Assembly: GCA_030606485.1 (NCBI GenBank)
Contig: JAUWGH010000004.1
Location: forward strand, 30,001 to 62,000
From: Promethearchaeota archaeon
GTDB taxonomy: Archaea > Asgardarchaeota > Lokiarchaeia > Sigyniarchaeales > SOKP01
Reading direction: 5' to 3'
Length of the DNA stretch: 32,000 nt
The position numbers and the translations under genes are program-made. The notes beneath the pieces are model-generated. The model saw only the letters and a program-made list of their open reading frames with translations. It had not been told where the DNA came from and searched no databases. Positions 1 through 28,272 of the stretch are shown one piece after another (the stretch's first letter is position 1; every line of letters begins with the position of its first letter).

Positions 1-370
1 CCTTCTTTTGTTTGGCTCTATAATTTTCTATTGCCTTACGTAATCCATCAGAGGCTAAGTTAGAGCAGTGCATTTTAATGGGGGGAAGACCATCTAATGA
101 ACCTGCAATATCATCTCTTGTTATTTTCATAGCCTCATCTAATGTCTTTCCTTTAGCTAACTCCGTTATCATTGAAGAAGTAGCAATGGCTGCACCACAC
201 CCAAAAGTCTGGAAGGAAATGTCATCAATCCGATCATCCTTTATTTTAATATAAATATACATTAAATCTCCACAAACTGGGTTTCCGACCTCTCCCACAG
301 CATCTGCATCCTTCATTTCTCCCATATTTCGGGGGTTTCTGAAATGATCCATTACTTTTTCTGAATACAT
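1..370 (-). CDS. iscU: Fe-S cluster scaffold IscU/NifU-type (3' end runs off the window; absent from ORF track)
   Basis: Manual translation from ATG at 370: MYSEKVMDHFRNPRNMGEM...GNPVCGDLM...FQTFGCGAAIATSSM...GLPPIKMHCSNLA; three conserved Cys, the Asp after Cys1 and the LPPIK motif are present; 45 bp downstream of iscS. Confidence 0.95.
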   Translation of the reverse strand, partial: MYSEKVMDHFRNPRNMGEMKDADAVGEVGNPVCGDLMYIYIKIKDDRIDDISFQTFGCGAAIATSSMITELAKGKTLDEAMKITRDDIAGSLDGLPPIKMHCSNLASDGLRKAIENYRAKQKK

Positions 371-415: not shown

Positions 416-1654
416 TTAATGGTGGTGGTCAGTTTCGTATGTTGGATCAAACATATATTTTTTCCCCTTTTTTAAGGGGGACATCTTTCTCAATTTTTCG
501 ATAATAGGAGGGAGTTTTTCTAAAAAATAGTCAATATCTGCTTCAGTCGTATATCTTCCCATAGTAATTCTTAATGAACCATGTGCATCTTCAGGTTTTT
601 GACCGATGGCTAATAATACATGAGAAGGTTCTAAAGATTTTGAAGAACACGCCGAACCTGTTGAGGCGGCTATACCTTCCACATCCAAACTTAAAATTAT
701 AGATTCTCCTTCAATATATCTAAACCCTAAATTAACATTGTTTGGTAGACGCTTAGTATAGTGCCCATTAAGATAAACATCTTCAATATTTTCGGTAATT
801 TCCTTTATAATTTTATCTCTAAATTTTATTAATTTTTCAGATTCTTCCTTCATATTCCGTTTGCATAATTCTACTGCTTTTGCAAACCCAGCAATACCTG
901 GAACATTTTCTGTGCTTGACCTCAACCCCCTTTCATGCCCTCCGCCATGTAATAGCGGCTCTATATACTTACCCCACCCTTTTCTTACACCATGTCCCCT
1001 GATATATAATAATCCAACTCCTTTTGGTCCATATAGCTTGTGCCCCGAAGCTGAAAGCAGATCTATATTCATCTCTTCAACATCGATAGGAACTTTTCCA
1101 AAAGTTTGAACAGCGTCAGTATGAAATATAACATCGTGTTTTTTTGCGATTTCTCCAATTTCTTTTATTGGTTCGATTGTTCCTATTTCATTATTTGCAA
1201 ATATTATAGATATCAAAATTGTTTTATTGGTGATGGTCTCTTCCAATTCTTTTAAAACAATCAATCCGAATTCATCTACAGGTAAATAACTCACTTTGAA
1301 CCCTTGTTTTTCCAGATATTGACAAGTGTGTTGGACAGCATGATGTTCAATGCTTGAAGTAATTATATGATTACCACGTCCTTTATTTTTAAAAGCTACC
1401 CCTTTTATTGCTAAATTATCAGATTCGGTGCCAGATGATGTGAAAAAGATTTCATCCTTTTTAGCGTTAATCAATGAAGCCACAGTTTCTCTAGATTTTT
1501 CTAATATTTGAGCTGCATTTTGACCTATTTTATGAAAACTTGATGGATTTCCATAAGTTTCTCTATGATGTTTCTCAATTTCTTTTATAACCTCTGGATC
1601 CATGGGAGTTGTAGCAGCGTAGTCTAAATATACATTTTTCATTTCTACTTTCAC
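416..1654 (-). CDS. iscS: Cysteine desulfurase IscS/NifS (canonical, PLP Lys present); alternative start ATG 1642
   Basis: YLDYAATTP, EHHAV, HTDAVQ, SGHKLYGPKG (Schiff-base Lys), STGSACSS (catalytic Cys). Confidence 0.95.
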   Translation of the reverse strand: MKVEMKNVYLDYAATTPMDPEVIKEIEKHHRETYGNPSSFHKIGQNAAQILEKSRETVASLINAKKDEIFFTSSGTESDNLAIKGVAFKNKGRGNHIITSSIEHHAVQHTCQYLEKQGFKVSYLPVDEFGLIVLKELEETITNKTILISIIFANNEIGTIEPIKEIGEIAKKHDVIFHTDAVQTFGKVPIDVEEMNIDLLSASGHKLYGPKGVGLLYIRGHGVRKGWGKYIEPLLHGGGHERGLRSSTENVPGIAGFAKAVELCKRNMKEESEKLIKFRDKIIKEITENIEDVYLNGHYTKRLPNNVNLGFRYIEGESIILSLDVEGIAASTGSACSSKSLEPSHVLLAIGQKPEDAHGSLRITMGRYTTEADIDYFLEKLPPIIEKLRKMSPLKKGKKYMFDPTYETDHHH

Positions 1655-1791: not shown

Positions 1792-2379
1792 TTATGTCGT
1801 CTTAAAAGAATTTTCAACTTTTTTCAATAAATTTTCTATAGTTCTTCTCTCTTTTATACTAAAATTAGATTCAAAATCACTTCTTATAGAAGTGCCATAA
1901 TAGGTATTACCAAAAAAAGTATTGCATTTCTTTATTGATTCTAATAATAACTTTTCATCTCCTACATGTAAATAGATTGAAATATCATTTATTATTAAAA
2001 TATTCGTTGGTTTTTTGATATAACTTTCAAGAGCTTTTGACGTTATAAGATAATTATGATTTGCATTTCTATACAATTCCTCTCGATTCTTCGCATTCAG
2101 CCGGGGTGGAATAATTTCTCCTTGTAAATTAAAGTAATTACAGATTTTACTTTTCGCATAAAAATCTTTTATTCTACCTCCAATATTTTTTCCTTTAATC
2201 ATTATTAATTGGGGTGCAAAATCCAAAATGCTAATTTCCTTAGGAGCTATTTTTTTATCTTCTAAAAGTAATTGTATAAAATTTGCCGTGTAGAATGTCT
2301 TTTTCGTATCGACTTCGCCGTAGATTATAGTTGTATGCCCGATTAAACTCTCGAAATCTATATTATTATAAAAACTCAT
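1792..2379 (-). CDS. Hypothetical protein with degenerate P-loop-like motif
   Basis: 195-aa ORF; IIYGEVDTKKT resembles Walker A (GxxxxGKT with G->K) and ILIIND resembles Walker B; same strand as its neighbours. Confidence 0.6.
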   Translation of the reverse strand: MSFYNNIDFESLIGHTTIIYGEVDTKKTFYTANFIQLLLEDKKIAPKEISILDFAPQLIMIKGKNIGGRIKDFYAKSKICNYFNLQGEIIPPRLNAKNREELYRNANHNYLITSKALESYIKKPTNILIINDISIYLHVGDEKLLLESIKKCNTFFGNTYYGTSIRSDFESNFSIKERRTIENLLKKVENSFKTT

Positions 2380-22286: not shown

Positions 22287-23081
22287 TTATTTATCTTCAA
22301 GTAATATTACTTTATCCACAAATAACTCGTAATTATTATCTTCATCGAAATCGTGTATGACAACCTTCTCTACATCGTCAAATCCCCTTACTTCTAGAAG
22401 CTCAGATTGGTATAAAATTTTTACATCAGATATTTTTAATTTTTCTTGTATTTCTGAATTACCAGGAGGAGATTTACTGTAAGTGATTAACACAACTCTT
22501 CCAGTGTATTTTGTTAATTCCAATGCGAGTTTTAAGGAATTGTCTCCGTTATCTACAATTAACACTCTTTCATCGTTAAATTCTGATAAATTATCTACTT
22601 TCTTATAAATACCCTTACCAAGAAACTCATTAAAACCTATGATATTTCTTTCTTCTAATTGACAAGCAGTAATTACATCAACTTCTGGGTTTGCACCGTC
22701 TCTATAATTTCGAATTGCTGCTTGAAGCGCATCAGCTGCCAAATTAGAACAATGCATTTTAATCGGAGGTAATCCCTCGAGTTCATCAGCCACATCAGAT
22801 CTTGTTATTTTATACGCTTCGCTAAGTGTTTTACCCTTTGCCATTTCAGTAATCATAGAAGAAGTCGCTACAGCAGAACCACAACCAAATGTTTTGAACT
22901 TAATATCTTCTATTATTTCCTCGCCTTTTTCGTTTTTGCCGACCTTTATATAAATCCACATAAGATCTCCGCATACTGGATTTCCAACTTTTCCCATACC
23001 ATCTGGAATTTCTATTTCTCCCATGTTTCTTGGGTTTCTAAAGTGATCTAATACTTTTTCAGAATATGCTGTTGATTTCAT
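22287..23081 (-). CDS. iscU: IscU scaffold fused to a degenerate thioredoxin-reductase NAD(P)H-binding-like domain
   Basis: N-terminal about 130 aa: CGD, GCG, LPPIKMHC. C-terminal about 130 aa aligns by eye with the TrxB middle domain (GFNEFLGKGI...VLIVDNGDNSLKLALELTKY...). Confidence 0.85.
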   Translation of the reverse strand: MKSTAYSEKVLDHFRNPRNMGEIEIPDGMGKVGNPVCGDLMWIYIKVGKNEKGEEIIEDIKFKTFGCGSAVATSSMITEMAKGKTLSEAYKITRSDVADELEGLPPIKMHCSNLAADALQAAIRNYRDGANPEVDVITACQLEERNIIGFNEFLGKGIYKKVDNLSEFNDERVLIVDNGDNSLKLALELTKYTGRVVLITYSKSPPGNSEIQEKLKISDVKILYQSELLEVRGFDDVEKVVIHDFDEDNNYELFVDKVILLEDK

Positions 23082-23082
23082 A

Positions 23083-24276
23083 TTATTCTTTTACCTCATT
23101 ATATTGTTTTAATAAATTAGGAGGAGTTAGCGGTGATAATACCCTTAATCTTTTGACTACATTAGGTAAAACCTCCATAACCTTCTCTACATCAGTTTCT
23201 TTTGTGTATCGACCCATTGAGAGAAGTAAACTACCGTGAGCTTCTTCATGTAGCAATCCCATTGCGATAAGTGTGTGGGATGGCTCTAAAGTTTTAGAAC
23301 TGCAAGCAGAACCTGTTGCTGCAGATATATTTTGATCTCTTAATAATAAGATTAATGATTCACCTTCAATATATTCAAATCTAAAATGAGCATTACTGGG
23401 AAGCCTTTTTTCTGGATGACCATTTAAATAAGATTTTGGTATTGACGATAAAATTCCCGAAATGAGCTTATCTCTAAGACGTTTTAAAAAATCTGCCTCT
23501 TGATTTATTTCTTGTTTCATAATTTCAGCTGCTTTACCAAATCCCACAATACCTTGCATATTTTCGGAGCCTGATCTCATACCTCTTTCTTGACCACCTC
23601 CTATAATAATAGGATTCACTCTCACTCCTTTTTTTAAGTATAACGCACCAACACCCCGAGGTCCATAAATATCGTTCGAAGAAAAAGTCATTAAATCTAC
23701 TGGAACTTTTTGCACATCAATAGGAATAACATTTTCAATTGCTACAGCATCTGTGTGAAACAAAATACCTTTTTCTTGTGCTATCTCGCTAATCTCCACT
23801 ATGGGTTGGAGAGATCCTACTTCATTACTAGCAGATGTAATTGAAATTAGAATTGTATTCTCTCTAATTAAACGTTTTAATTTTTCTATATTGATGACAC
23901 CAAATTTATCAACACCAACTCTTGAAACTTCAAAACCTTGTCTTTCTAAGTATTTTCCAAGATTTAATATCGAAATATGCTCAATCTCAGAAATTATAAT
24001 ATGATTTCCCTTTCTTTTTCTATTTAAAGCCGCACCAATTAGTCCTAAATTACTAGCTTCCGTTGCACTAGATGTAAATATTATACTATCTGGACTTGGA
24101 GCATTAATGAAATCAGCAATTTTTTGACGCGATTCTTTTAAGGCATTGGTAGCATCATCTCCATCAAAATGTAGAGATGCGGGATTTGCAAAAATTTTAT
24201 TATAATATGGTCTCATTGCAGATAGAACCCTTGGATCAACTGGTTTAGCTGCTTGATAATCTAAATATACACTCAT
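23083..24276 (-). CDS. iscS: IscS-like protein lacking the PLP Schiff-base lysine (HK->ND)
   Basis: YLDYQAAKP, EHISI, HTDAVA, SSNDIYGPRG, ATGSACSS (Cys kept). Confidence 0.9.
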   Translation of the reverse strand: MSVYLDYQAAKPVDPRVLSAMRPYYNKIFANPASLHFDGDDATNALKESRQKIADFINAPSPDSIIFTSSATEASNLGLIGAALNRKRKGNHIIISEIEHISILNLGKYLERQGFEVSRVGVDKFGVINIEKLKRLIRENTILISITSASNEVGSLQPIVEISEIAQEKGILFHTDAVAIENVIPIDVQKVPVDLMTFSSNDIYGPRGVGALYLKKGVRVNPIIIGGGQERGMRSGSENMQGIVGFGKAAEIMKQEINQEADFLKRLRDKLISGILSSIPKSYLNGHPEKRLPSNAHFRFEYIEGESLILLLRDQNISAATGSACSSKTLEPSHTLIAMGLLHEEAHGSLLLSMGRYTKETDVEKVMEVLPNVVKRLRVLSPLTPPNLLKQYNEVKE

Positions 24277-24336: not shown

Positions 24337-24699
24337 TTAAAACCACATAGTAGCATCTGCTTCTAAAACTAAATCGTTTAGAGTAGCAGCTCCAACAATT
24401 TTTGTTCCTGATATTAATTCAACTTTATCCAATCCTAACATTCTTTTTGAAGCTTCACAAACTAAAATCTCAACACCAGCTTCAAGAGTCTTGTCTAGCA
24501 TTTCTTTCACAGATGGGAATTCTCCTAGTTTTATTCTATTCGCTTCTCCAGGCATCAGTATTCGTAATCCTGTACCTAAATAATATACTTTTGCATCAAT
24601 ATCCATAGCCTTAGCCGTTTGAGCTAAAACTAATGGAGAATATTGTTTTTCAGGATTGTCACTGGTTTGAACATATAATATAAACTTTTTCTCACTCAT
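24337..24699 (-). CDS. DsrE/DsrF-like sulfur-carrier family protein
   Basis: 120 aa; PLVLAQTAKAMD, YYLGTG, GVEILVCEAS (conserved Cys), VGAATL; SD GGAGG. Confidence 0.85.
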   Translation of the reverse strand: MSEKKFILYVQTSDNPEKQYSPLVLAQTAKAMDIDAKVYYLGTGLRILMPGEANRIKLGEFPSVKEMLDKTLEAGVEILVCEASKRMLGLDKVELISGTKIVGAATLNDLVLEADATMWF

Positions 24700-24712: not shown

Positions 24713-24964
24713 TTATTTTATTGGTTTTTTAAAGATAAATATTAAATCATTATCCTCCTTTCTAAAATCTAAGATCTCGGCACCAGTCCTTTTTGCCCAC
24801 CTATGCAAATCTTCATCAGCGGCAGGATCATCTGCTATAACTTTGAAACTTTGACCATCTTCAAGTTTTTCGTATAAATTTCTAACTTCAAATAAGGGTT
24901 CAGGACAATACAATCCTCTTGTATCTAATTTTTCGTCAATTTCTTTATTTTCTTCACTTTTCAT
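24713..24964 (-). CDS. tusA: TusA/SirA-family sulfur carrier
   Basis: LDTRGLYCPEP (CPxP), VIADDPAA...WAKRTG; SD AGGAG. Confidence 0.92.
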   Translation of the reverse strand: MKSEENKEIDEKLDTRGLYCPEPLFEVRNLYEKLEDGQSFKVIADDPAADEDLHRWAKRTGAEILDFRKEDNDLIFIFKKPIK

Positions 24965-25194
24965 TTTACGAGACTCCTAATGCAAATTTAAAATATTTAA
25001 ATTCCAAATTAGAAAGGATTTATTAATAAATTCTAATCCTTAAATAAAAACAAACCAGAAGAAACTTAAATATTCTCATTATTTTTTAATGAAAATATTT
25101 GTATTTTGAAATTACACAATAAATACTATAGGAATTAATTTTATAATATATAAATTTCAAGCAAAATGATGATTAAAATTCTATAATTGTTAAT

Positions 25195-25301
25195 TTATAA
25201 CTTATTAAGATAAAGTTGTTGATGATCTTTCGATTCCGCTAGAGAATAACTTCAACAAAAGCTTCTTGCAATTTTATTGAAAAACTATCAAATCTCATCA
25301 T
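25195..25301 (-). pseudogene. clpB: Probable clpB 5' remnant (frameshifted and truncated)
   Basis: MMRFDSFSIKLQEAFVE, then after a 1-nt shift YSLAESKDHQQLY, matching the ClpB N-terminus pattern MRxDxFxxKxQEA..EAxSLA...HQQ; GTGAT SD; 11 nt after the dnaJ stop. Confidence 0.65.
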
Positions 25302-25312
25302 TTTACATCACT

Positions 25313-26320
25313 TTATAATCCTAAATTTTTTAATTTTAATAATAATTCTTTCTGTTCTCCCGTTAATTTTTTGGGAACATTAATTTTTACTTTCACCAAT
25401 AAATCACCTCTTTGATCTGAATTCAATTTATAAAATCCTTGATTTTTTAATCTAAGAGTGGCATAATGTTGAGTTCTTGAAGGAATATTTACATTTAAAG
25501 TGCCCCCATCGATTTTAGGAACTTTAATTTTTCCCCCTAATGTTGCAACTGAGAAAGGTATTTCTTTTTCGATATAGAGATCATTGGTTCTTCTTTCAAA
25601 AATTGTATGATTCTCAATGTGAATTACTATATAAAGGTCGCCATTTGGACCACTATATTCTCCCAGCATACCTTTACCTTTAAGTCTTAATTTCTGATTA
25701 TCATGTACTCCTCTAGGAATTTTTATTGATAGGGTAGTTTTTTTATTAGTAGCAGGATCTATATATTGAACCTTTCTAGTACCCCCATGAAATGCTTCCA
25801 TAAAATTAATTTCCATATCATATCGCAAATCCTCACCTTCTCGAGGGATATTTGGTCTTACCCTTGTTCTTGTACTACCACTTCTTTTATTTGAAAAAAC
25901 ATCAAATATATCTCCTAAATCATTAAAGAAATCGAAATTGGATCCTGAGAATCTCCCCGAACTTCCCATATTTTTGAAAAATTCGCTAAAATCTCTAGGA
26001 TTTCCGGAGCTAGTATATACATAAGTTCCGTCAGGAGTTCTATTAAAATTTGAACGACTACTACCAGGGGTAGATTGATAATATGTTGAGCGATCACCAT
26101 CTACTACTCCAAATTTATCGTACATCTCCCTCTTTTTATCATCGTTCAAGACGCTATAAGCTTCATTAATTTCTTTAAATTTTTCTCCAGATTTTGGTTC
26201 GTCTGGATTTACATCAGGGTGATATTTTCTTGCCATTTTTCGGAAAGCACGTTTTATTTCTTCCTTAGTAGCGCTTTTATCTATTCCTAAAATTTTATAA
26301 TAATTTTTCTTTGGCAGCAT
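25313..26320 (-). CDS. dnaJ: DnaJ-family co-chaperone, type II/CbpA-like (no zinc finger)
   Basis: J domain with HPD, G/S/F-rich region, C-terminal substrate-binding domains, no CxxCxGxG repeats; SD GGGGTGA. Confidence 0.93.
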
Positions 26321-26391
26321 TTTTCACCCCAGCACAGCTCTTAATTTAAAAAAATAAAAAGTTATTTAAAAAAAAAACAAATATTTTTATT

Positions 26392-28272
26392 TTAGGCTTC
26401 TTCATAATCTGTATCTACTATATCATCTTGTCCAGAAGCTTTTCGATATTGTTCAGCTTGTTTTTCATGTTCTGGTCTATCATCTTGCGGTATTCCACAT
26501 GAACCACCAGGATAACCTTTATGAGTCTGATTTTGATCATAAATCCTCGCTGAAACTTGATGTAAAGCAGTTTGTAAATCTTCCATTGCGTTTTTAATCC
26601 TTGAAGGATCTTCTCCTTCATAAGCTCCCTTCAACACTAAAACTTTTTGTTCAATAGTTGTTTTTAAGTCCCCGATTTTATCTTCGTGTTCTTTCATAAT
26701 TTTCTCGGTTTGATATATTAGAGATTCCGCTTGGTTTTTTAAAGATATTAATTCTTTGATTTTCTTATCTTCCTCAGCATATTTCTCGGCTTCTCTGATT
26801 TTTGCATCTATTTCTGATTCAGACATCTTTGTAGAAGCAGTAATAGTAATTCCAGTTTGTTTTCCAGTACCCTTGTCTTTTGCTTTTACATTTAAAATGC
26901 CATTTTCATCGATGTCAAATGTCACCTCTATTTGTGGCACCCCTCTCGGAGCTGGTGGTATCCCAGTTAAATGAAATGTCCCTAAAGTAATATTATCAGC
27001 AGTCATTGGTCTTTCACCTTGAAGTACATGAATTTCAACTGCAGGTTGATTGTCTGACGCTGTCGAAAATACTTCAGTTTTTCTCGTAGGAATTGTCGTA
27101 TTTCTTTCAATTAATTTTGTAAATACTCCTCCCAATGTTTCGACACCCAAAGAGAGTGGCGTGACATCTAAGAGTAATAAATCCTTAACTTCACCAGATA
27201 AAATTCCACCTTGTATTGAAGCACCCAGAGCAACACATTCCATCGGATCAATACCATGTTCTGGAGGCTTTCCAAAAAGTTCTTGGAACTTTTTTTGAAC
27301 GCTAGGCATTCTTGTAGGCCCTCCTACTAACAGAATCTTATCTATACTTGAAGACTGTAAGTTTGCATCGCTTAACGCCCTTTTAATAGATATCTCTAAT
27401 TTTTTTAAAATTGGGCTAATTAAACTCTCAAGTTTGGCTCTGGTTAAGGACATATTTAAATGTTTAGGTCCATTTGCATCCGCAGTAATGTAAGGCAGAT
27501 TTATTTCAGTTGTTAGCGTCGTGGATAACTCAATTTTTCCTTTTTCTGCTGCGTCTCTAATCCTTTCCATTGCTTTAGAATCTTTTCTCACATCAATTCC
27601 TTGTTCCTTTTGAAATTCTGTAGCAATATTATCTACCAAAATTCTATCCATGTCAGTTCCTCCCAATTGAGTATCTCCAGCTGTGGAAATGACTTCAAAT
27701 ACTTTATTTTCCATTTCGAGAATAGTTACATCAAATGTACCTCCTCCTAAATCAAGAACAGCAATTTTAATACTGATATCTTCCTTATCTAAACCATAAG
27801 ATACGGCAGCAGCAGTAGGTTCGTTAATTAATCTTCTTACGTTTAATCCAGCAATTTTACCGGCGTCTTTTGTGGCTTGCCTTTGATTATCGTTAAAATA
27901 TGCAGGTACCGTAATAATAGCTTCACTTACTTCTTCTCCTAAAAAGGCACTCGCATCTTTCTTTATTTTACTTAAGATCATTGCTGAAATTTCTTGCGGA
28001 GAATAATCTTTTCCATCGATTTTAACCTTATAATTCATACCCATTTTTCGTTTAATGGCAGTTATGGTTCTATCTGGATTAGAAATAGCTTGTCTACGAG
28101 CAGGTTCTCCTACTAATCGTTGTCCATCTTTCGTGAAGGCAACTACACTAGGAAAAGCTTTACCTCCAATAGTGAGTCCTTCAGCGCTCGGAATTAATGT
28201 GGGCTTTCCCCCGATTAGTACAGCAGCTGCAGAATTTGAAGTTCCCAAGTCAATTCCAATTATTTTTCCCAT
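26392..28272 (-). CDS. dnaK: Hsp70 chaperone DnaK
   Basis: [47 protein letters not shown]. Confidence 0.98.

Follow-up and report, generated by a model that had tools for sequence, protein, structure and literature searches.

In Archaeoglobus fulgidus the IscS protein carries Asp199 and bound pyridoxamine 5′-phosphate (PMP), is devoid of desulfurase activity, and probably serves only as a Cys ligand to the [2Fe-2S] cluster; the D199K variant is inactive as well, and the source of the cluster sulfur has been regarded as open, with sulfide as the suggested candidate (PMC8918507). In Methanosarcina acetivorans, IscS1 also lacks the lysine; its partners are an IscU1 of 24.2 kDa and four genes without a known function, and the canonical pairs IscS2/U2 and IscS3/U3 are present alongside it (PMC7585200). 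Here, a protein of this kind, IscS-D, was analyzed. It is encoded in a stretch of 32,000 nucleotides from a Promethearchaeota archaeon (contig JAUWGH010000004.1, positions 30,001 to 62,000; this whole stretch is called the window), which also encodes a canonical cysteine desulfurase, IscS-K. Neither the protein type nor the coexistence of two types is new, because A. fulgidus IscS2 and the M. acetivorans systems have been published (PMC7585200). Genes for the sulfur carriers TusA and DsrE are found directly upstream of iscS-D and near most other lysine-less iscS genes, and we propose that IscS-D is probably a non-catalytic partner of IscU that is supplied by these carriers.

The four genes tusA-dsrE-iscS-iscU are located in this order on the minus strand, with intergenic gaps of 13, 60, and 1 bp. 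The features of this putative operon and of the canonical pair are as follows.

2-370, minus strand: IscU-K, short canonical IscU, truncated by the window edge (134-amino-acid frame in the genome; NifU_N, 3e-49)
416-1654, minus strand: IscS-K, canonical IscS/NifS-type cysteine desulfurase, 412 amino acids (Pfam, 1e-88; NCBIfam FeS_nifS, 548.7 bits, cut-off 530.75)
1037-1039, minus strand: codon Lys206 of IscS-K (codon check)
22287-23081, minus strand: IscU-long, 264 amino acids (NifU_N, 3.5e-46)
23083-24276, minus strand: IscS-D, lysine-less IscS paralogue of the A. fulgidus IscS2 type, 397 amino acids (Pfam Aminotran_5, 1e-73, residues 3-366)
23224-23226, minus strand: codon Leu351 of IscS-D, at the site of the substrate-carboxylate Arg, R362 in IscS-K (codon check)
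23302-23304, minus strand: codon Cys325 of IscS-D, GSAC loop (codon check)
23671-23676, minus strand: codons Asn201-Asp202 of IscS-D (Asp202, 23671-23673; Asn201, 23674-23676), at the His-Lys site of the Schiff base with pyridoxal 5′-phosphate (PLP) (codon check)
23740-23742, minus strand: codon Ala179 of IscS-D, at the Gln site of HTDAVQ (codon check)
24337-24699, minus strand: DsrE-family sulfur-carrier-like protein, 120 amino acids, one conserved Cys (VCEAS) (Pfam DsrE, 1.9e-15; PDB 3mc3, 2e-11)
24713-24964, minus strand: TusA-family sulfur carrier, 83 amino acids, CPxP motif (Pfam TusA, 3.6e-20; NCBIfam TusA, 1.5e-13)
24965-25312, no strand assigned: AT-rich spacer of 348 bp upstream of tusA, presumed (predicted) promoter region of the four-gene operon (sequence read)

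GGAG-type ribosome-binding sites were read in front of tusA and dsrE. The residues C20, P21, and P23 of TusA were invariant in 19 aligned sequences. The canonical gene iscU-K starts 46 bp downstream of iscS-K.

A preliminary description of this DNA, which was made from the sequence alone, had stated that IscS-D lacks the PLP lysine but retains the GSAC Cys, and that a canonical IscS is located 21 kb away. This was verified: iscS-D and iscS-K are 21.4 kb apart, and the motifs are FSSNDIYGPRG, HTDAVA, and GSAC in IscS-D versus ASGHKLYGPKG, HTDAVQ, and GSAC in IscS-K. Over 389 residues, IscS-D and IscS-K share 48% identity (E 2e-134). Beyond that description, two further losses were found, His205 to Asn and Arg362 to Leu, in addition to the tusA and dsrE genes directly upstream. 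While IscS-K carries every catalytic residue, including the Lys, the His, the Gln of DAVQ, and the substrate Arg, the four sites that characterize a canonical desulfurase are occupied by D, N, A, and L in IscS-D. Its scores were below the NCBIfam cut-offs (FeS_nifS 459 vs 530.75; IscS 392 vs 643).

The distribution of these residues was determined in an alignment of 312 IscS-like sequences, which included 57 D-type and 221 K-type proteins. IscS-K numbering is used for the four substituted sites, which we take to coincide with that of Escherichia coli IscS up to Lys206. The K-type was defined by the Lys, which is thus present in 221/221 at site 206; all 57 D-type proteins have Asp. Position 205 is Asn in 56/57 D-type proteins and His in 199/221 of the K-type. 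At position 183 Ala is present in 56/57 versus Gln in 210/221; in canonical IscS such as that of E. coli, this Gln contacts O3′ of PLP. Arg362 is found in 215 of the 221 K-type proteins and in none of the 57 D-type proteins, which have Leu, Gln, Glu, or Val instead. In contrast to these losses, the loop Cys (Cys325 of IscS-D) is present in 56 of the 57 D-type proteins, the remaining one having a gap, and the cofactor-pocket residues Thr72, His100, Asp176, and Ser199 of IscS-D are kept and near invariant. All of the 120 closest database homologues of IscS-D have D or E at the Lys site; because of this and the Asp in 57/57 aligned D-type proteins the substitution is not a chance event. Taken together, IscS-D has retained the fold, the dimer-type architecture, the pocket residues, and the mobile-loop Cys325, and has lost four residues of cysteine desulfuration. 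This pattern fits a protein that could still hold PLP or PMP non-covalently, but could not form the internal or external aldimine with cysteine, and IscS-D is predicted to make no persulfide from cysteine.

The best PDB match of IscS-D was A. fulgidus IscS2 (4EB5, 4EB7, 4HVK; E 3e-135, alignment 3-383) with an identical SSNDIYGP motif, followed by its D199K variant (4R5F). The IscS of one A. fulgidus locus (L133) matches 4EB5 over residues 1-382 (838.7 bits). A phylogeny had been proposed in the preliminary description, and a tree of 162 sequences (quick build, LG+G4) placed IscS-D in the D-type clade of A. fulgidus: all 52 D-type genes, the two A. fulgidus copies among them, had a common ancestor with a support of 99 in the Shimodaira-Hasegawa-like approximate likelihood ratio test (SH-aLRT). 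On these grounds IscS-D is assigned as an orthologue of the "dead" IscS of the A. fulgidus IscS2 type, and thus belongs to a kind of protein that is already known. What the preliminary description had stated about A. fulgidus, i.e., Asp199, an inactive desulfurase, and the Cys as ligand of the [2Fe-2S] cluster in the IscS-IscU complex, agrees with the reviews (PMC8918507, PMC13066941) and with 4EB5 as top match. The same clade (support 99) also includes five K-type Asgard sequences and one N-S variant. The five sequences (L159, L160, L162, L163, and L164, from the Asgard families f21, f15, f9, f8, and f20) have kept the Lys, but have A, S, or D in place of the DAVQ Gln; they may represent intermediates or the stem of the D-type.

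The likeness to A. fulgidus IscS2-IscU (AF0564) comprises the clade, SSNDIYGP, the replacements of Gln by Ala and of Arg by Leu, the loop Cys, and an IscU directly downstream. It extends to the upstream genes, as dsrE is directly upstream at AF0564 and tusA-dsrE is directly upstream at the paralogous locus in the AF0186 region. The differences are that IscS-D is only 54-56% identical to the two A. fulgidus copies, that the IscU of A. fulgidus has 156 amino acids while the IscU in the window bears a relic thioredoxin reductase (TrxR) domain of 130 amino acids, and that A. fulgidus lacks a canonical IscS but carries two copies of the D-type, whereas the Promethearchaeota genome has one of each.

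The frequency of the linkage to sulfur carrier genes was determined with 80 IscS loci that were drawn arbitrarily from all prokaryotes and provided the K-type control set, 30 Halobacteriota loci, and 40 Asgard regions. A linkage was scored when tusA and/or dsrE were present on the same strand within 1.5 kb of iscS. This was the case for 63 of 73 lysine-less IscS genes, but for only 1 of 89 canonical genes. The linked loci belong to Asgard archaea, Archaeoglobi and other Halobacteriota, Bathyarchaeia, Thermoplasmata, Actinomycetota, Nitrospirota, Chloroflexota, and others; a search for related loci with a single protein as query yielded 9 loci. Both A. fulgidus loci are linked, one with the order tusA-dsrE-iscS-iscU and the AF0564 locus with a shortened dsrE followed by iscS-iscU. 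Gene order has thus survived across very distant phyla, and therefore a functional tie is argued; the direction of the sulfur flow does not follow from it. No paper on a link of tusA-dsrE to lysine-less IscS was found in the literature that was searched. A predicted complex of IscS-D and TusA received a score of 0.01 in modeling without control pairs, which speaks neither for nor against binding.

Several observations were made at these loci. The two A. fulgidus loci (L132:6143-8362 and L133:6045-7954) encode identical IscU proteins and nearly identical DsrE-like proteins, and look like a segmental duplication; at AF0564 the dsrE frame is shortened to 94 amino acids and no tusA is adjacent. 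In metagenome-assembled genomes of Actinomycetes (L024:5347-7155, L025:2042-3834, L027) a D-type cassette tusA-dsrE-iscS-iscU-long was found that is about 60% identical to the Asgard cassette. In the tree it grouped with a sequence of Thorarchaeota, a position that suggests a transfer between the domains. In two genomes of Asgard family f13 (G012:C1:1442981-1444090, G023:C1:1403913-1405022) a second full-length class-V aminotransferase (390-400 bits to PF00266) is encoded about 600 bp from the D-type iscS.

The most constant partner of D-type iscS is iscU, which is adjacent at 47 of 52 loci. In the window, iscU-long starts 1 bp after the stop codon of iscS-D and encodes an intact IscU domain with three Cys, the Asp, and LPPIK. 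Its C-terminal part (around 22287-22700) is a relic of the NAD(P)H domain of thioredoxin reductase; residues 148-261 are TrxR/FNR-like (PDB 2zbw, 1e-6; NCBIfam TRX_reduct, 4.7e-10). TrxR-like sequences, either as fused relic, as full fusion, or as a separate gene with CATC, are present at 24/52 D-type loci versus 1/89 K-type loci. A full-length IscU-TrxR fusion of 448 amino acids is encoded in Asgard family f19 (L143:4903-6249, plus strand), and separate TrxR-like genes with intact CATC and GxGxxA are present in Halobacteriota (L120:74-718, L126:3446-4090); both look like earlier stages of the relic domain of IscU-long. In four Asgard loci (L169:5203-7188, L171:5137-7188, L173:1-2037, L022:9251-11647) another flavoprotein of 662-798 amino acids is encoded beside the cassette, which resembles coenzyme A disulfide reductase (CoADR) and persulfide reductases and combines Pyr_redox_2, dimerization, rhodanese, and TusA domains. 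In sister genera it is located 1-2 kb from iscS-D, beyond iscU-long. This CoADR-rhodanese-TusA gene is absent from the window.

A census of genomes with both types, which the preliminary description had also proposed, revealed that 23 of 26 genomes of the family, the one containing the window included, have one match with 67-93% identity and a second one with 46-51%; in the family regions that were retrieved, the first match has SSND and the second has HK. D-type genes were found in nine sampled Asgard families and both types together in at least four, while several Asgard families have only the D-type. It had also been claimed that each IscS has its own IscU. This holds true for the genus of the window (the window, G040, and G129), but not for six genomes of sister genera, in which the canonical IscS stands alone. 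In Asgard family f7 (L139:2923-4218 and L142:2926-4215, both minus strand) the Lys of the second IscS paralogue is replaced by Val or Arg; the His and the DAVQ Gln are kept, and a short IscU is adjacent. These genomes also carry the D-type, and thus both of their IscS copies may lack the Schiff-base lysine.

The ratio of non-synonymous to synonymous substitution rates (dN/dS) of iscS-D versus its orthologues was 0.31 for comparisons inside the genus and 0.06-0.11 for those in the family, where dS is saturated; for iscS-K the values were 0.16 and 0.09-0.17, respectively. Therefore, iscS-D is under purifying selection. The preliminary description had named relaxed selection, with a dN/dS near 1, as an observation that would speak against its proposal. 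This was not found, because the values of 0.06-0.31 are far below 1, D/E at the Lys site is conserved, and both copies are kept in the family.

Comparison with further systems revealed shared components in different combinations. By published description, M. acetivorans IscS1/IscU1 (MA0808/MA0807) shares the lysine-less IscS, the long IscU, and the extra genes alongside canonical pairs; IscS1 formed inclusion bodies and is biochemically uncharacterized (PMC7585200). Related Halobacteriota loci have the order tusA-dsrE-iscS-iscU, two of them with a separate TrxR-like gene. A lysine-less clade of bacteria (Nitrospirota, Chloroflexota, Desulfobacterota, and others) resembles the D-type in the loss of the Lys and the Arg, the Gln to Ala replacement, the kept Cys, and the adjacent IscU with tusA and/or dsrE. 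It differs in forming a separate clade (support 99), in having Q, T, S, V, or L instead of D, in a mostly short IscU, and in its bacterial hosts. MIS (MisS/MisU) is described in the citing papers as a minimal archaeal Fe-S system with an active cysteine desulfurase (PMC13066941, PMC12192291). According to these descriptions, it likewise is a two-gene unit of an IscS-like and an IscU-like protein without chaperones, ferredoxin, or carriers, but the pair in the window lacks the desulfurase residues and has tusA and dsrE as accessory genes. The relay of E. coli IscS, TusA, and TusBCD (DsrEFH-like) makes use of the same families, and TusA has the Cys of CPxP. Yet in this relay an active IscS loads TusA for tRNA thiolation, while IscS-D is predicted to be unable to generate a persulfide; therefore, sulfur would have to flow toward IscS/IscU, or come from another source.

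We favor the reading, with a probability of roughly 60%, that IscS-D is a non-catalytic partner of IscU, that sulfur comes in at Cys325, which at the same time is the fourth ligand of the cluster, and that TusA/DsrE feed IscS-D with sulfane sulfur, while IscS-K runs the cysteine route. From the inability to desulfurate cysteine onward, the steps are what we infer. IscS-D would bind IscU-long as in the crystal complex of A. fulgidus, and by the same analogy the nascent [2Fe-2S] cluster would have Cys325 as its fourth ligand. The sulfur would be delivered as sulfane sulfur bound to the Cys of TusA, of the DsrE-like protein, or of both, and would then be passed to Cys325 or to IscU. The co-encoded flavoproteins of relatives, of the TrxR or the CoADR-rhodanese-TusA type, could supply a reducing step; the window has kept only the relic in IscU. 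IscS-K and IscU-K would be the ordinary cysteine-dependent route, so that Fe-S clusters could be formed from either sulfur source. A D-type unit can work without a canonical desulfurase, because no other full-length class-V desulfurase besides the D-type copies was found in A. fulgidus. The division of labor between cysteine-derived and external sulfur, which the preliminary description had put forward, is plausible, and tusA-dsrE as well as the cold-seep origin fit to it. The two systems could also operate in series, from IscS-K via TusA to IscS-D, and not in parallel; yet A. fulgidus runs its D-type without a canonical enzyme.

Several points weigh against a carrier-fed IscS-D. In E. coli sulfur runs from IscS to TusA and on to TusBCD, which is the reverse of the direction assumed here. 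Carrier genes are missing nearby for ten of the 73 lysine-less genes and are present at one canonical Asgard IscS (L152). Phylogenetically, the linkage counts do not represent independent events: about five changes between K and non-K are enough to explain the tree, namely a mainly archaeal D clade, a Q/T/S clade of bacteria, an HT/HV/HR group of Thermoplasmata and Asgard archaea, and singletons. A test with independent pairs of lysine loss versus tusA/dsrE comprised only 4-5 pairs and was not significant, the number being too small to reach significance. Within the genus, the dN/dS of IscS-D was twice that of IscS-K. The literature search found no experiment on IscS-D or on any TusA/DsrE neighbor of a lysine-less IscS. 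Finally, free sulfide might be sufficient in sulfidic sediment, as has been proposed for A. fulgidus.

The last point leads to the alternative that IscS-D is only a structural partner and Cys ligand for IscU, that free sulfide is used, and that TusA/DsrE buffer or detoxify reactive sulfur or are regulatory. This hypothesis has been published for A. fulgidus (PMC8918507, citing Pagnier 2015), the SMS system can use sulfide directly (PMC12192291), and both the cold-seep origin of the organism and the 10/73 loci without carriers are in line with it. It leaves unexplained, though, why tusA/dsrE are linked to lysine-less and almost never to canonical IscS across distant phyla, and why flavoprotein reductases of the persulfide type have joined the cassette; we regard it as unlikely. 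Even less probable, in our opinion, is that the unit serves sulfur trafficking outside of Fe-S clusters, i.e., tRNA thiolation, molybdopterin, or thiamine, with IscS-D as an adaptor, possibly loaded by IscS-K, that passes sulfur to TusA/DsrE, and with IscU as a sensor or regulator. The genome does contain three tusA genes, TusA and DsrE homologues accept sulfur from IscS in E. coli (PMC13066941), and the two IscS types occur together in 23/26 family genomes. But in A. fulgidus and in several Asgard families the D-type is the sole IscS, so that no upstream enzyme could charge it with sulfur from cysteine; 47/52 D-type loci have an IscU whose cluster ligands are intact, and genes for tRNA or molybdenum cofactor thiolation are missing from the cassette.

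That IscS-D is still an enzyme, which uses non-covalent PLP/PMP for another reaction (a half-reaction like that of transaminases, or one with a different donor of sulfur or selenium) or is a slow desulfurase with another base, is very improbable. The near invariance of Thr72, His100, Asp176, and Ser199 and the PMP or PLP in A. fulgidus IscS crystals (PMC8918507) would be in accordance with a reaction, but all four residues (Schiff-base Lys, His, Gln, and substrate Arg) were lost together, and A. fulgidus IscS as well as its D199K variant are inactive as desulfurases (PMC8918507). A decaying duplicate, i.e., a pseudo-enzyme heading for loss, is contradicted by the data in spite of the about twofold dN/dS within the genus relative to the canonical copy, because the reading frame is uninterrupted, dN/dS lies well under 1, family members are 67-78% identical, just as they are for IscS-K, the four substitutions recur as fixed changes throughout archaeal phyla, and synteny has been preserved.

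The window has a G+C content of 31% and is part of a genome of 3.75 Mb in 13 contigs that was rated 100% complete; the stretch had matches in cold-seep and marine-sediment metagenomes of several studies. Four RNA-labelled runs were inspected, of which one is probably DNA and two had no match. The remaining one, a salt-marsh metatranscriptome, contained two short contigs (151 and 269 nucleotides, 96-98.5% alike) that cover iscU-long and iscS-D. They are not taken as proof of transcription, because a carry-over of DNA is possible and contigs give no expression level.

Upstream of the four genes, dnaK and then dnaJ are encoded on the minus strand (25313-28272); in the DnaJ, a J domain and a C-terminal domain are present but the zinc-finger region is missing, no grpE is adjacent, and the next upstream gene is OsmC-like. 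A chaperone link comparable to HscA/HscB was considered and rejected as coincidental, because the adjacency is confined to the genus and a CitMHS transporter gene intervenes there. In the three closest relatives (L013-L015:2664-3995) this gene encodes a 443-amino-acid CitMHS-family transporter on the opposite strand between dnaJ and tusA, where the window has only the 348-bp spacer (24965-25312). Near the canonical pair, a SufB/D-like gene (PF01458, 73.8 bits; G000:C2:27457-28113) is located about 2 kb left of the window start, beyond iscU-K/iscS-K, and a second, stronger one is present on contig C4 of the same genome. An open reading frame for 195 amino acids (1792-2379, minus strand) without a Pfam or NCBIfam match is found between iscS-K and a ThiW-like gene, and its position is kept in both relatives of the genus (L166, L167).

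The sulfur source of the A. fulgidus IscS-IscU without a desulfurase was an open question in a 2022 review (PMC8918507). The window adds an Asgard member, and a dead and a live paralogue are kept together in 23/26 genomes of its family. The gain is modest, since the kind of protein and the coexistence have been published, and the value lies not in the locus as such, but in making the A. fulgidus question testable: tusA and dsrE are directly upstream, as they are at the A. fulgidus loci, and it can be asked whether the persulfide of TusA/DsrE loads Cys325 or IscU. Tentatively, and with somewhat less than even odds in our estimate, lysine-less IscS, IscU, TusA, and the DsrE-like protein, often together with a flavoprotein reductase of the persulfide type, would constitute a distinct and widespread cysteine-independent Fe-S pathway of anaerobes, in which carrier-bound sulfane sulfur replaces the PLP chemistry. 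In this Asgard lineage it would run in parallel to the cysteine-dependent IscS, and the sulfur source would be chosen by the habitat.

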